In this document: in pieces, positions 23,653-33,365 of the stretch
Numbering within the stretch: the first letter of the stretch is position 1
Layout: each line of letters begins with the position of its first letter
NCBI RefSeq assembly: GCF_055900595.2
Contig: NZ_JBVWEU010000003.1
Direction: 5' to 3' (one strand)
DNA length: 64,000 bases
Source: a plasmid
Notes under the pieces: generated by a model
Database searches by the model: none
What the model was told of the DNA's origin: nothing
Seen by the model: only the letters and a program-made list of their open reading frames with translations
Position numbers and translations under genes: made by a program

Positions 23653-24150
23653 CTTCGGCTCCCGGCTGCCTGACGGCATCCGGTCGTCAGGCCCGACTCC
23701 GACAGGCAGCTGCTGGCGCACCCGCCAGTCTCCGCCGAACCCGCTGGCGCGGTTTCGGGCTGTCGCTACGGTCCGATGCGTGAAAACCCGGGCTTGCAGC
23801 GACCGTTCCGGTCGCGCCGCCCCTGTCGCGCCGTGACCTGCGCTCCCTGCACACCTGACGGTGTGTGAGGAAACTGCGCCTGATGGCGCAGCAGTCCTCC
23901 CTCCTGCCGCCACCCCTGCGGCCTGTTTCCCGCTGTGGACTTTCCGGGGGGCAGACGTAACCCCCTCCCGTTCCATCTGTCCAGGGTGAGATGCACCGGC
24001 CACAAAATTTTTAGCCATGAACCCGGCAAAAAATTTTGCGTCCGCCCCCGGACAGCTGCCCCGTGAGGCGGTAAACGGGCCCCCATCGGAAAGGTCCACT
24101 GCGGGGAGAAACCCCTGTGAAGTGGACGGCAGGAGGAGCTTTCGCTCCTC
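23653..24150. repeat. Leading-region structured repeat, family B, copy 1 (upstream of ssb; single-strand-promoter-like)
   Basis: About 500 bp shared with 30005-30512 and, in part, 33030-33365; contains hairpins CACACCTGACGGTGTG and CTGCGCCTGATGGCGCAG. Confidence 0.65.
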
Positions 24151-28967: not shown

Positions 28968-29306
28968 CGTCGCCGCCGGCTCCGCTTTTACCCGGCCATG
29001 CGGGGCATGGCCTTGTGGGTTTTCAGTTATGTGGCCGCCGTGTCGTGTGCGGGCTGTGCCGTGCCTCCATCGTAGCCGGGCTTCTGCGGGCGGGATGCAA
29101 GGTAAGATGAACCGCTGCGGTCACCCGGTCCCTCCTTCCCGTCTGCCGTGATTTTCCGGTCGTTCACCCGCTCAGATTTCGCGGTCTCACCCTCCAACTC
29201 CCGTCAGCCGTGCGCGTCGGGCTGCGGCTTTCCTTGCGCCCTTGCATCCCTGCAGGCCCGGCAAAGATGGAGGCACGGCACCGCCCGGTGTCGCAGAACA
29301 TGTGAC
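28968..29306. repeat. Leading-region structured repeat, family A, copy 2 (upstream of ardA)
   Basis: Near-identical to 22012-22350. Confidence 0.7.
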
Positions 29307-29322
29307 TATGGAGGATTCGGGA

Positions 29323-29823
29323 ATGTCTGTTGTTGCACCTGCTGTATACGTTGGAACCTGGCACAAATATAACTGCGGAAGCATCGCCGGCCGCTGGTTT
29401 GACCTGACCACGTTTGATGATGAACGCGATTTTTTCGCCGCCTGCCGTGCCCTTCACCAGGATGAAACCGATCCGGAACTGATGTTTCAGGATTATGAGG
29501 GTTTCCCGGGGAATATGGCCTCTGAATGTCATATCAACTGGGCCTGGGTTGAAGGCTTCCGCCGGGCACGGGATGAAGGCTGCGAAGAGGCTTATCGTCT
29601 CTGGGTGGATGATACCGGTGAGACGGATTTTGACAGCTTCCGCGATGCCTGGTGGGGCGAGGCTGACAGTGAGGAGGCTTTTGCGGTTGAGTTCGTCAGT
29701 GATACCGGCCTGCTGGCTGACGTGCCGGAGACGGTGGCGCTCTATTTTGACTATGAGGCGTATGCGCGGGATTTATTCCTGGACTCCTTCACCTTTATTG
29801 ACGGTCATGTGTTCCGTCGGTGA
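29323..29823 (+). CDS. ardA: ArdA anti-restriction protein (DNA mimic)
   Basis: MSVVAPAVYVGTWHKYNCGSIAGRWFDL…DYEAYARDLFLDSFTFIDGHVFRR matches ArdA; start taken at the internal ATG. Confidence 0.9.
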   Translation: MSVVAPAVYVGTWHKYNCGSIAGRWFDLTTFDDERDFFAACRALHQDETDPELMFQDYEGFPGNMASECHINWAWVEGFRRARDEGCEEAYRLWVDDTGETDFDSFRDAWWGEADSEEAFAVEFVSDTGLLADVPETVALYFDYEAYARDLFLDSFTFIDGHVFRR

Positions 29824-30004: not shown

Positions 30005-30512
30005 CCTTCGGCTCCCGGCTGCCTGGCGGCATCCGGTCGTCAGGCCCGACTCCGACAGGCAGCTGCTGGCGCACCCGCCAGTCTCCGCCGAACCCGCTGG
30101 CGCGGTTTCGGGCTGCCGCTACGGTCCGATGTCTGAAAAACCAGGCCTGCAGCGACCGTTCCGGTCGCGCCGCCCCTGTCGCGCCGGAAACGGCGCTCCC
30201 TGCACACCTGACGGTGTGTAAGGCCACTGCGCCTGATGGCGCAGTTGTCTGCCCTTCCGCCGCCACCCCTGCGGCCTGTTTCCCGCTGTGGACTTTCCGG
30301 GGGCTGAAGCGGCCACAACACGTTTCAGCCGTCCAGGGGAGAGATGTACCAGCCACAAAACTTTTTGCCGCAGGCGTCAAAAACTTTTGCGTCTGCCCCC
30401 GGACAACTGCCCCGTGCCGTGGCAGTCGCTGCCCCATCGGAAAGGTCCACTGCGGGGAGAAACCCCGAAGAAGTGGACGGCAGAAGGGGCTTTCGCCCCT
30501 CCGGGGAATAAC
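30005..30512. repeat. Leading-region structured repeat, family B, copy 2
   Basis: Shares the hairpin-rich sequence with copy 1; immediately precedes the ORF at 30555. Confidence 0.65.
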
Positions 30513-31081: not shown

Positions 31082-31348
31082 ATGAGGCCATCAATTATCT
31101 TCGCAACCGCCGAGTATGTAAAGCGTCTGCGTGAAGAGTGCCGGCGGGAGAACAAACCCCTGCACCGCCATACCCGCTTCAGACGCCAGGAACTGGCACC
31201 GGATGAGATTAACCCGGACGTCCTGGCGATGGGCGGTCATATCGCCAGACGCTGCAGTGAGCGGAAGCGGGTGCGTATCCCCGCCATGAAAGTCAGCGAA
31301 TGGGGCCACCTGCTCCGCGCGCTTGAAATTGAGCGGGTCTGCCACTGA
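31082..31348 (+). CDS. Hypothetical basic small protein
   Basis: 88 aa starting MRPSIIF after a GGAG Shine-Dalgarno-like sequence. Confidence 0.35.
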   Translation: MRPSIIFATAEYVKRLREECRRENKPLHRHTRFRRQELAPDEINPDVLAMGGHIARRCSERKRVRIPAMKVSEWGHLLRALEIERVCH

Positions 31349-31412
31349 TTAACCCTTGCCGTCTGCCTGTGCAGGCGGCAGGATACGTTCAGACATCTCA
31401 CCAGGAGGAACC

Positions 31413-32330
31413 GTGAGTAAGAAGAAAACCACCACGACGCCCACGCCGCATGATGCCGCGTTCCGGTCGTTCCTGGCGAACCCCGACGTCGCCAGAGATT
31501 TTCTGGAACTGCATCTTCCGGCGGAGTACCGGCAGTTGTGCGACCTGTCCACGCTGAAGCTGGAACCCGCCACCTTTGTTGAGCCGGACCTGCATCAGTA
31601 CGCCAGCGATATCCTCTGGAGTGTGAAAACCACCGGGGGTGAAGACGGCTATATTTATACGCTCATCGAGCACCAGAGCACCGAAAATCTGTACATGCCT
31701 TTCCGCATGTTACGTTACAGTGTGGCGGCGATGCAGAGACATCTGGAGCAGCACAAAACATTGCCACTGGTGATTCCGGTGCTGTTCTATCATGGTGAGC
31801 GCAGCCCGTACCCGTACAGCATGAACTGGCTGGACTGTTTTGAGGATCCGGCACTTGCGGCTAAAATATACACAAAGCCGTTTCCGCTGGTTGATATCAC
31901 TGTCGTTGATGACAATGAAATCATGAACCATCGCCGGATGGCCGCACTGACGCTGCTGATGAAGCATATCCGTCAGCGGGATATGCTGATGTGTCTGGAC
32001 AACCTGGTCAGGGCACTGCAGGACATCCAGGATGAAGAGCAGATTACAGTTCTTTTCAACTATCTGCTTAATGGCAGCGAACATGTAACGGTTAAATTTT
32101 TGCAGACGCTGGCGCAGCGACTGCCGCAGCACGAGGACAGCATTATGACACTGGCAGAACGTCTTAAGCAGGAAGGAATACAGCAGGGAATACAGCAGGG
32201 AATACAGAAAGGCCGCATGGAGGAGAAGCTGGATATTGCGCGTCAGCTTCAGAAAACGGGAATGTCATTTGCACAAATCTGTCAGATCACCGGACTTTCT
32301 GAAGCCGAACTGAAAAAAATCGCCCACTGA
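31413..32330 (+). CDS. Rpn-family (YhgA-like) recombination-promoting nuclease
   Basis: GTG start 7 bp after AGGAGG; N-terminal HDAAFRSFLANPDVARDFLELHLP and YTLIEHQST motifs typical of Rpn proteins; C-terminal QQGIQQGIQQGIQKG tail. Confidence 0.7.
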   Translation: MSKKKTTTTPTPHDAAFRSFLANPDVARDFLELHLPAEYRQLCDLSTLKLEPATFVEPDLHQYASDILWSVKTTGGEDGYIYTLIEHQSTENLYMPFRMLRYSVAAMQRHLEQHKTLPLVIPVLFYHGERSPYPYSMNWLDCFEDPALAAKIYTKPFPLVDITVVDDNEIMNHRRMAALTLLMKHIRQRDMLMCLDNLVRALQDIQDEEQITVLFNYLLNGSEHVTVKFLQTLAQRLPQHEDSIMTLAERLKQEGIQQGIQQGIQKGRMEEKLDIARQLQKTGMSFAQICQITGLSEAELKKIAH

Positions 32331-32342
32331 GTAAACATCACA

Positions 32343-32368
32343 GCCCGGCAAAATGCCGGGCTTTTTTG
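32343..32368 (+). terminator. Rho-independent terminator after the Rpn gene
   Basis: GCCCGGCAAAATGCCGGGC hairpin followed by TTTTTT. Confidence 0.6.
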
Positions 32369-32394
32369 TCAGCAGGAGCAGAGCAAACAGCATG

Positions 32395-32550
32395 ACGATT
32401 GCAGAACGTCTTATTCAAAAAGGCGCTCTTGAAGTGGCGCGGGAAATAGCCTGCCGGCTTCGGGATATGGGCTGGACGCCGGAACGGATTCAGGAGGCAA
32501 CCGGACTTTCCGGTGAAGAACTGAAAAAACTGTTTCCTGATGAGCTGTAG
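32395..32550 (+). CDS. Free-standing small protein resembling the Rpn C-terminal tail (RpnS-like)
   Basis: MTIAERLIQKGALEVAREIACRLRDMGWTPERIQEATGLSGEELKKLF parallels the last ~55 aa of the adjacent Rpn (MTLAERLKQEG…ICQITGLSEAELKKIAH). Confidence 0.45.
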   Translation, partial: TIAERLIQKGALEVAREIACRLRDMGWTPERIQEATGLSGEELKKLFPDEL

Positions 32551-32580
32551 CCTGGCATTCTGCCAGGCTGTGAATCACGC

Positions 32581-32832
32581 TCACACATCCTCTGCCGTTT
32601 CCCCCAGTTCATTTTCCAGTCGCCTGATGATATCTGCCTTACGCATCCCCTGCATGTGAGGCAGCAGGTCACGGACTGAAAGAGCCTGGGTGGTCCTCCA
32701 GACGGTGACGTCCACCTGTTCCGCATTTTCCCAGGCGTGCCATGTTCTCTGCGTCACGCCAAATTCTCTGGCCGCTTTTTCGCGTGACCAGAGCATGCTT
32801 TTTCGCCAGATTCGCAGTTCCCAGCCGGTCAT
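32581..32832 (-). CDS. Putative small HTH DNA-binding regulator
   Basis: 83 aa; KAAREFGVTQRTWHAWE is HTH-like; divergent from the downstream operator-like palindromes. Confidence 0.4.
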   Translation of the reverse strand: MTGWELRIWRKSMLWSREKAAREFGVTQRTWHAWENAEQVDVTVWRTTQALSVRDLLPHMQGMRKADIIRRLENELGETAEDV

Positions 32833-32844
32833 AAAACACCTTTG

Positions 32845-32935
32845 AAAAAGTGAAAAAACTTCACTTTATTTTATCATCATAATCATCAAATCAGCGCGAT
32901 AAATAAGTGTGAAAAAGTGAAGAAATTTCACTTTT
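32845..32935. promoter_or_regulatory. Two operator-like palindromes AAAGTGAA-N5-TTCACTTT
   Basis: Two copies about 65 bp apart in an AT-rich spacer between the HTH gene and the family-B repeat. Confidence 0.4.
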
Positions 32936-33029
32936 TTTTGATTGTGGGTGTCGTGCTGTTTTCTCTGTTTTCACCTGTGCGGGAGTGGTGCGCCAGTGAC
33001 CACAGCATGCCGTTGTTGTGCCGTCGGTT

Positions 33030-33365
33030 TTCTCCGGTCGCGCCGGATGCGGCGCTCCCTGCACACCTGACGGTGTGTAAGGCCACTGCGCCTGATGGCG
33101 CAGCTGTCTCTGCCTGTCTGCCGCCGCACTGCGGCCCGTTCTCCGCAGACGGACTTTCCGGGGGTACATACACGACCACATCCCGTTTCAGTCGTCCAGG
33201 GGAGAGATGTACCAGCCACAAAACTTTTTGCCGCAGGCGTCAAAAACTTTTGCGTCTGCCCCCGGACAACTGCCCCGTGACGTGGTGAGCGTCCCCCGTC
33301 GGAAAGGTCCACTGCGGGGAAATCCCCGAAGACCCGGACGGCAGAAGGAGCTTCGCTCCTCCGGG
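33030..33365. repeat. Leading-region structured repeat, family B, copy 3 (partial)
   Basis: Shares the distal ~330 bp of copies 1 and 2; precedes the ORF at 33410. Confidence 0.6.

Follow-up and report, generated by a model that had tools for sequence, protein, structure and literature searches.

A conserved stand-alone RpnS-type gene, probably of different specificity, downstream of the RpnP2 nuclease gene of IncI-complex plasmids

A 64,000-nucleotide (nt) stretch of plasmid DNA (NCBI RefSeq assembly GCF_055900595.2, contig NZ_JBVWEU010000003.1), referred to here as the window, carries at 31413-32550 a gene for an Rpn (YhgA-like) nuclease, followed in the same orientation by a small open reading frame (ORF) whose product resembles the C-terminal tail of that nuclease. 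The locus is probably best read as an RpnP2-type defence module of the IncI-complex plasmids (IncI1, B/O, K, Z and I-gamma), with the small ORF as an accessory RpnS of orthogonal specificity. Judged by sequence, the window locus is an allele of RpnP2 and was already known, and the arrangement with a spare tail gene was likewise described in 2023. As its sequence indicates, the small ORF is one conserved lineage across IncI-complex plasmids, found beside three different types of nuclease tail, and is not copied from the tail now present. The parts of the module, with lengths in amino acids (aa), are as follows.

31413-32330, plus strand: rpnL (GTG at 31413, stop at 32330), full-length Rpn (YhgA-like) PD-(D/E)XK nuclease of 305 aa, the putative toxin/effector.

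32132-32147, plus strand: internal RpnS start, with the Shine-Dalgarno sequence GAGGA (32132-32136), 8 nt and ATG 32145 (M245); this is the sequence mutated in the published RpnP2-L*.

32145-32330, plus strand: rpnS, the C-terminal tail of 61 aa, of the rare type C; predicted intragenic antitoxin, from homology to RpnP2-S.

32178-32213, plus strand: three four-residue repeats, IQQG IQQG IQKG, in tail helix 1, read from the sequence.

32342-32368, plus strand: terminator-like hairpin between rpn and the small ORF, 9 bp (7 G-C) followed by a T run, from a sequence scan.

32374-32378, plus strand: AGGAG, candidate ribosome-binding site 13 nt 5' of the small-ORF ATG, a long spacing; identified by conservation.

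32392-32550, plus strand: gene of the rpnSs type (ATG at 32392, stop at 32550) for a stand-alone 52-aa protein with the predicted RpnS fold and zero repeats, a diverged paralogue of the tail by BLASTP against it.

32549-32569, plus strand: second hairpin, AGCCTGGCA-TTC-TGCCAGGCT, homologous to the first and closing the putative duplicated unit.

The rpn genes were described by Zhong et al. (PNAS 2023; PMC10400941) as genes-within-genes, in which full-length RpnL is a toxic DNA endonuclease and RpnS, a C-terminal tail with its own translation from an internal start, binds RpnL directly and so blocks it. Which RpnL a given RpnS blocks depends on how many four-residue repeats tail helix 1 contains, and one repeat added to RpnC-S or to RpnC-L alone abolished inhibition (PMC10400941). 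For RpnP2, a plasmid gene of Escherichia coli ECOR13, RpnP2-L was toxic, RpnP2-S neutralised it, and the pair defended against T-even phages (PMC10400941). Separate downstream tail genes, termed 'rpnSs', were found in the same study on both chromosomes and plasmids, among them ypaA after rpnE and a copy after rpnC. RpnE-Ss (ypaA) was detected as a tagged protein, and cases of rpnSs loss were reported in which the gene is deleted or has become fused with the N-terminal domain of rpn (PMC10400941).

As an earlier note made from the letters of this DNA had recognised, the 305-aa product is an Rpn (YhgA-like) protein; by sequence it is an Rpn-family nuclease with intact catalytic residues. Residues 11-209 match PF04754 in Pfam (E 1.9e-78), and the NCBIfam model for the Rpn family recombination-promoting nuclease, TIGR01784, is matched with 187 bits against a cut-off of 52.1. 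D14, D66, E86 and Q88, which are the positions altered in the published RpnP2 active-site mutant gBlock AO730, are all wild type in the window protein. PADLOC 2.0, which has no Rpn model, returned only a weak 'putative invertase' match on the tail region and none on the small ORF.

The gBlocks and primers used for RpnP2 (bioRxiv Dataset S2 of Zhong et al.) were aligned to the window. With engineered changes included, the gBlocks are 97.0% (31113-31511), 97.4% (31784-32174) and 96.5% (31413-31810) identical to it, and the 43-nt arm of the rpnP2 deletion primer matches 31373-31415 at 43 of 43 positions. The window locus and RpnP2-LS of ECOR13 thus share the gene and its plasmid position, upstream and nuclease DNA of 96.5-97.4% identity, the internal start and the catalytic residues. 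The sequence GAGGACAGCATTATG, which lies at 32132-32146 of the window, was replaced by tctgacaccatttta in the published gBlock AO714 (RpnP2-L*) to abolish RpnP2-S; because those changes map to 32132-32146, M245 corresponds to a validated internal start. Separate translation of the window RpnS from M245 would be carried over from RpnP2, and the sole plus-strand promoter site that the promoter scan placed inside rpn (31840-31867) is a candidate promoter for this internal RpnS.

Because the experiments were done on a near-identical allele, functions can be proposed for the window nuclease and its internal antitoxin: toxicity, neutralisation and phage defence would all carry over, with the reservation that the window tail is of another type. 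The ECOR13 tail, judged from primers AO705 and AO672, is of type A, whereas that of the window is of type C, reading IQQG IQQG IQKG RMEEKLD.... A downstream small ORF is present in ECOR13 too, since primer AO738 lies inside it; the small ORF has zero repeats in the window and four in type A plasmids such as the one at locus L002. The RpnP2-LS fragment that was cloned comprised rpn with 300 bp upstream and 101 bp downstream (PMC10400941), and the clone stops with CTTATACAGAAAGGTTTCGACG, corresponding in ECOR13-type plasmids to codon ~14 of the small ORF. The deletion made in ECOR13 took out rpnP2 alone (PMC10400941). RpnP2-LS was non-toxic and protective without an intact small ORF, which indicates that the small ORF was dispensable for neutralisation in those assays.

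Sequence comparison and a structural model identify the small ORF as a true homologue of RpnS, encoded as a separate downstream gene of the rpnSs type. In a single BLASTP comparison, it aligned with Rpn residues 245-303 at 24 of 59 identical positions (41%, E 4e-8), which is the pairwise alignment that the earlier note had put forward as a check and which bears out the similarity. The last 42 positions of the TIGR01784 profile are matched by the small ORF (E 1.7e-4), as is, from end to end, the sequence of RpnA-S in Protein Data Bank (PDB) entry 7TH0 (E 0.015). A Pfam-A scan of a 68-aa form of the small ORF found nothing significant. An AlphaFold2 model had a mean predicted local distance difference test score of 78, with three helices at residues 3-25, 30-37 and 41-47. 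The best PDB match of this model was again RpnA-S 7TH0, with template modelling scores of 0.77/0.85, a root mean square deviation of 1.1 A over 44 residues and 48% identity. The crystal structure of RpnA-S is a three-helix bundle with a long first helix, as in the model; RpnA-S is made from inside rpnA, whereas the window small ORF is a separate gene. The top PDB matches of the small ORF by sequence (IcmE/DotG, designed repeat proteins and pentatricopeptide repeat proteins) were rejected as artefacts in which many weak repeats are summed.

Homologues of the small ORF fell into 338 protein clusters, and the 120 listed were all 60-111 aa long, a range that points to stand-alone proteins, which differ chiefly by their number of repeats and by the annotated start. 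Many of the database homologues carry a precomputed match to PF27070. Plasmid copies of the small ORF are variously annotated as 'hypothetical protein', 'RpnC/YadD family protein' or 'Transposase'. A 65-aa reading from ATG 32353, which is used in some RefSeq records, is unconserved, the codon being ATA in several plasmids, while every locus examined has ATG 32392 and its preceding AGGAG. The earlier note had described the tail as echoed by a ~51-aa ORF immediately downstream. The homology stands, and the ORF is one residue longer (52 aa) and is set apart from rpn by a 61-nt spacer that contains a hairpin. The two peptides were also interchanged there: the one beginning MTIAERLIQKG is the small ORF, and the one beginning MTLAERLKQEG is the Rpn tail.

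To compare tails and small ORFs, 26 other plasmid loci (L001-L018 and L020-L027) were examined together with the window, and locus L019 represents K-12. The tails are of three types. Type A reads (IQQG)n VQQG ALQKAREIARELRNAGMP..., type B reads RQEG (RMEG)n ALEKALAIACQLQKMGMTPEQIK... and type C, that of the window, reads IQQG IQQG IQKG RMEEKLDIARQLQKTGMSF..., with a tail repeat number of 0-5 among the sister plasmids examined. Type C is rare, being at least 90% identical in 60 of the 1402 matching records from an E. coli genome collection. The small ORF, in contrast to the tails, is always of one type, MTIAERLIQKG (FDEG/FKEG/FKQG/FEKG)n ALEVAREIACRLRDMGWTPERIQEATGLSGEELKKLFPDEQ, with n = 0-5. 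An N-terminal MT(I/L)AERLxQ(K/E)G is common to the small ORF and all tail types. Beneath this diversity the nuclease domain is nearly invariant and the tail mosaic: between the window and L002, 4 of the 244 nuclease-domain residues differ, and the tail cores are only 67% identical.

The small ORF of the window was compared with each kind of tail in turn, and gave the following identities.

Own type C tail: 45-49%.

Type A tail: 53%.

Type B tail of sister plasmids: 67%.

K-12 RpnA-S: 43%.

The small ORF is thus nearer to a tail found in sister plasmids than to the one beside it, and the proposal in the earlier note of a free-standing copy of the nuclease's own tail does not hold. RpnC-Ss and RpnE-Ss have been reported to cluster with the tail of their own upstream gene, and the window small ORF does not.

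The chromosomal pairs rpnE-ypaA of K-12 and rpnC-rpnCSs resemble the window in having a full-length rpn followed by a tail-only gene in the same orientation, with a repeat number that differs between the two (2 versus 3 in K-12). In K-12, the spacer between rpnE and ypaA is 12 nt long and has a good ribosome-binding site and no hairpin, whereas that of the window is 61 nt long with a terminator-like hairpin. The ypaA product is 82% identical to the rpnE tail, against 45-49% for the window small ORF and its neighbour's tail; the window small ORF is a lineage of its own beside swapped tail types, and K-12 RpnE is annotated as inactive. RefSeq labels ypaA (L019 4817-5002) a pseudogene, despite the tagged protein detected (PMC10400941).

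Repeat numbers differ between the two genes of the window as well, with three in the tail and zero in the small ORF. Across the related plasmids compared, tail and small ORF had unequal repeat numbers at all 25 loci in which both genes are intact, each number ranging from 0 to 5. When the pairing was shuffled, 4.0 equal pairs were expected and zero were seen in 1.2% of shuffles (P = 0.012); over the 19 distinct combinations, 3.0 were expected (P = 0.038). The two numbers gave a Spearman rho of -0.39 (p = 0.053). In K-12, rpnE and ypaA are also one repeat apart. These unequal repeat numbers are a lead and not an established result. Taken with the RpnC repeat experiment, the numbers 0 and 3 predict no neutralisation of the resident RpnL by the small ORF, which lacks the equal repeat number expected of a cognate antitoxin of the adjacent RpnL.

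An intact small ORF was found in the window and in 25 of the 26 other plasmid loci, and across IncI1, B/O, K, Z and I-gamma plasmids from Escherichia, Salmonella and Klebsiella. At L018 (772-1671), a recombinant rpn has a tail that ends in the small-ORF C-terminus (…TGLSGEELKKLFPDEQ), and the separate small ORF is gone; at L027 (about 1155-1620), an IS21-family insertion at the 3' end of the small ORF has removed its last codons. All length differences of the small ORF are multiples of 12 nt, and 9 of its 19 variable sites fall at third codon positions. The ratio of nonsynonymous to synonymous differences per site (pN/pS), taken pairwise over the small-ORF core outside the repeats, is 0.32, equal to the 0.32 obtained for the nuclease domain from a codon alignment of the plasmid loci and higher than the 0.16 of type B tail cores. 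These sequence comparisons favour a maintained and probably translated gene.

The region is widespread. The surrounding 1.4 kb (31300-32700) was found in 2019 plasmids of PLSDB, of which 1894 are conjugative and most come from Escherichia, Salmonella and Shigella, and in 1378 of 5426 complete E. coli genomes, where it is almost always plasmid-borne. The best match to the region (99.3%) is an IncK2/Z plasmid, and other carriers are typed as IncI1/B/O and IncI-gamma/K1. Diversity is concentrated in the tail and small ORF: this segment (32100-32580, 481 nt) is at least 90% identical in 51 of 2083 plasmids, compared with 1127 of 2019 for the whole 1.4 kb.

The rpn stop and the small-ORF ATG are separated by a spacer of 61 nt. 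All loci keep the hairpin within it, and one compensatory change, from A-T to G-C, affects the stem base. The sequence CAGCAGGAGCAGAG(C/A)AAACAG(C/T)ATG is kept in 15 of the 16 spacers listed, the remaining one having CCTGCAGGAG..., and AGGAG is found in 16 of 16. The first hairpin, AGCCCGGCA-AAA-TGCCGGGCT, is homologous to the second, AGCCTGGCA-TTC-TGCCAGGCT, and because both units end in homologous hairpins, the duplicated unit would extend from the internal ribosome-binding site to the hairpin. Direct-repeat blocks in the DNA of tail and small ORF pair 32145-32176 with 32392-32423 (78%) and 32289-32318 with 32500-32529 (83%). A 36-nt repeat gap upsets the 5' part of the MAFFT alignment, and the comparison of the duplicated units was therefore confined to the 3' part and the direct-repeat blocks. 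No Rfam match was found in or near the rpn/small-ORF locus. A 30-nt inverted repeat (30410-30439 and 32107-32136, 83%) was considered and judged to be due to chance.

By its gene neighbourhood, the rpn module sits in the plasmid leading region, 2.4-3.4 kb from nikA/oriT. Upstream of rpn, a 144-aa ORF and an 88-aa ORF follow ardA, whose position (29323-29823) comes from homology to an annotated plasmid. Further left, the plus strand also carries psiA, psiB, ssb and a ParB-like gene. Downstream are a convergent helix-turn-helix (HTH) gene (32581-32832, minus strand), a DUF4942 gene, mobA/nikA (34807) and the relaxase gene nikB (35259). The position of rpn is syntenically fixed in about 2000 plasmids, with constant neighbours at 27 loci. 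In the window and most other loci, the 88-aa ORF ends 64 nt 5' of rpn. At L007, L011, L012, L014 and L024 (locus 1-219), the upstream gene is instead a different ORF of 129 aa, which shares 4 nt between its stop and the rpn start, an overlap that suggests translational coupling; one annotator calls this ORF 'CbiX', which is doubtful. NCBIfam gave no match for the 144-aa ORF, the 88-aa ORF, the HTH protein, the DUF4942 protein or a 113-aa ORF, nor for a 193-aa reading that includes ardA.

Three copies of an element of ~290 nt, with 84% mean column identity, are found in this part of the window.

23853-24145: ssi/Frpo-like element copy 1, just upstream of ssb.

30175-30465, minus strand: ssi/Frpo-like element copy 2, a candidate single-strand promoter reading rightwards, upstream of the 144-aa ORF, the 88-aa ORF, rpn and the small ORF.

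33034-33327: ssi/Frpo-like element copy 3, upstream of the DUF4942 gene.

DNA folding of the minus strand of the element predicts a long hairpin (z-scores -9.3 and -6.7 relative to shuffled sequences). From their sequences, the three elements look like class 1 ssi/Frpo single-strand promoters, which have been described for ColIb-P9, pESBL and F (PMC12672017, PMC11541004), and the copy at 30175-30465 may on the same basis be linked to the expression of rpn and the small ORF. The gene rpn is coded with the transferred strand as template, and ardA, psiB, psiA and ssb lie on the same strand. Provided that nikAB are transferred last, the strand leading into the recipient in IncI1 transfer should be the minus strand. 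This order is consistent with PMC12672017. The orphan antitoxins of leading regions (Samuel and Burstein, Nature 2024; PMC11541004) share with the window module their anti-defence neighbours, their orientation relative to the transferred strand and a hairpin resembling a single-stranded DNA (ssDNA) promoter. In the literature collection searched, no paper connects Rpn nucleases with leading regions.

Several other features of the window were recorded. A 32-nt inverted repeat (29050-29287, 91% complementary, with 174 nt between the arms) lies directly 5' of ardA and gives a minus-strand hairpin with a z-score of -4.2; a 'class 2' ssDNA promoter has been reported before ardA and klcA in pESBL, and by analogy this hairpin is a candidate for one. 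Two 39-nt direct repeats (32834-32872 and 32901-32939, 82%), each with an inner palindrome GTGAA..TTCAC, lie in an A+T-rich gap by the start of the HTH gene and may be an operator pair for the HTH regulator. The sole Rfam match above the gathering threshold in the window is AgrB (RF02891; 43098-43187, minus strand; 50.4 bits against 40), an antisense RNA family, and it falls within the transfer-gene region.

Taken together, the following mechanism is proposed. RpnL would act as a PD-(D/E)XK DNA endonuclease that is toxic alone, as found for the allele of 96-97% identity. RpnS made from M245 would bind RpnL through the three-helix tail domain that they share and hold it inactive, and the pair would limit T-even phages. 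In type II toxin-antitoxin systems a protein antitoxin likewise binds a protein toxin directly; the Rpn antitoxin departs from them in being a toxin domain that is translated separately from an internal start. The small ORF would have arisen by tandem duplication of a unit of ~250 bp, comprising ribosome-binding site, tail, stop and hairpin, and would since have diverged into a distinct conserved lineage under purifying selection. It is most likely translated, giving a dimerisation protein of the RpnS fold that would be unneeded for keeping the nuclease next to it in check. Pairing with the resident RpnL or RpnS is improbable, since small ORF and adjacent tail never carry the same number of helix-1 repeats. 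Such an accessory RpnS could modulate the system, or store a spare specificity for transfer onto the nuclease by recombination. The earlier note had suggested a toxin-antitoxin-like or phage-defence module with the small ORF as the antitoxin. The module part is supported by the 96.5-97.4% identity to RpnP2; the antitoxin that has been demonstrated is the intragenic RpnS from M245, and not the downstream ORF. That interpretation is therefore partly supported, being right in outline and having credited the wrong element as antitoxin.

Some observations weigh against an accessory RpnS of orthogonal specificity. The small ORF resembles type B tails (67%) in its N-terminal 11 residues and over much of helices 2-3, a likeness that makes cross-binding to RpnL possible. 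Control of specificity by repeat number was shown for RpnC only, with one added repeat (PMC10400941), and the pattern of never-equal numbers rests on a small sample of 25 related, non-independent plasmids. As for expression, the promoter scan found no sigma-70-like site 5' of the small ORF, which is placed behind a terminator-like hairpin and has a long distance of 13 nt from AGGAG to ATG. It is rather unlikely that the small ORF is a second ordinary antitoxin of the adjacent nuclease, binding the tail domain of RpnL and adding to neutralisation by the intragenic RpnS. It has the fold and family of a proven antitoxin, RpnA-S, lies directly downstream in the same orientation, shares the N-terminal MT(I/L)AERLxQ(K/E)G with all tail types and is under purifying selection. 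Against this, its repeat number is unequal to that of the adjacent tail at 25 of 25 loci and an extra repeat abolished neutralisation in RpnC (PMC10400941), its identity to the window tail is only 45-49%, and RpnP2-LS is non-toxic without an intact small ORF.

The same uncoupling of repeat numbers could mean that the small ORF is kept 'out of register' with the resident nuclease and acts on something else, as an anti-defence decoy or a stored alternative specificity, a reading that is considered unlikely. If it were true, repeat number would be a code of self versus non-self among Rpn systems, an early decoy would disarm those Rpn nucleases, whether of the recipient or of rival plasmids, whose helix length matches, and a stored specificity could be grafted by recombination onto nuclease and overlapping antitoxin at once. 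A narrower form has a rather low probability: soon after transfer, the small ORF would be expressed in the recipient from the single-strand promoter as an orphan antitoxin serving anti-defence or competition, and would neutralise repeat-matched Rpn nucleases encoded on the recipient chromosome or on rival plasmids. Its place in the leading region beside ardA, psiB, psiA and ssb, with the transferred strand as template and an ssi/Frpo-like hairpin upstream, is consistent with such a role, as is the enrichment of such antitoxins in leading regions (PMC11541004), and at 43% identity the chromosomal RpnA-S is about as near to the small ORF as is its neighbour's tail. No target is obvious, however, as none of the 120 homologues listed from the 338 clusters is a full-length Rpn with FxxG repeats; the terminator-like hairpin precedes the small ORF, and the nuclease itself would be co-expressed. 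About equally improbable is that the small ORF serves mainly as a recombination cassette, whose exchange with the tail swaps or resizes the specificity helix together with the overlapping antitoxin. The switch of the L018 tail to the small-ORF C-terminal end with loss of the small ORF, the reported fusions of this kind (PMC10400941), the three mosaic tail types on a nearly invariant nuclease domain and the far greater diversity of the tail and small-ORF segment than of the whole gene all fit a cassette. A start codon, a ribosome-binding site and amino acid conservation would be unneeded for this, yet all are conserved, and the fusions look like rare dead ends because the cassette is lost in them.

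It is more doubtful still that the small ORF is a decaying, functionless remnant of the tandem duplication. The pseudogene label of its K-12 counterpart ypaA in RefSeq, the upstream terminator-like hairpin with the negative promoter scan and a published defence phenotype that is independent of the small ORF are in keeping with decay. Decay is difficult to square with an ORF that is intact across five plasmid groups (IncI1, B/O, K, Z and I-gamma) in three genera, with a pN/pS of 0.32, 9 of 19 variable sites in third positions and only in-frame repeat changes, and with translation of the K-12 homologue (PMC10400941). Finally, the names 'Transposase_31' in Pfam and 'ISNCY family transposase' in NCBIfam, the latter matched below its cut-off, would, in line with many annotations, make the Rpn gene a transposase and the small ORF part of a mobile element. 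This is effectively refuted: a repeat search of the window found no inverted repeats flanking rpn, the gene keeps a fixed syntenic position in about 2000 plasmids, and Zhong et al. argue against transposition by Rpn (PMC10400941). An accessory RpnS of orthogonal specificity in an RpnP2-type module is thus the reading retained here.

The small ORF is carried by roughly 1900 sequenced resistance plasmids of the IncI complex and would arrive in a new host with the earliest-transferred genes. Its effect on Rpn nucleases, be it tuning, redirection or disarming, bears on how resistance plasmids may safely carry, or use, a toxic defence gene.

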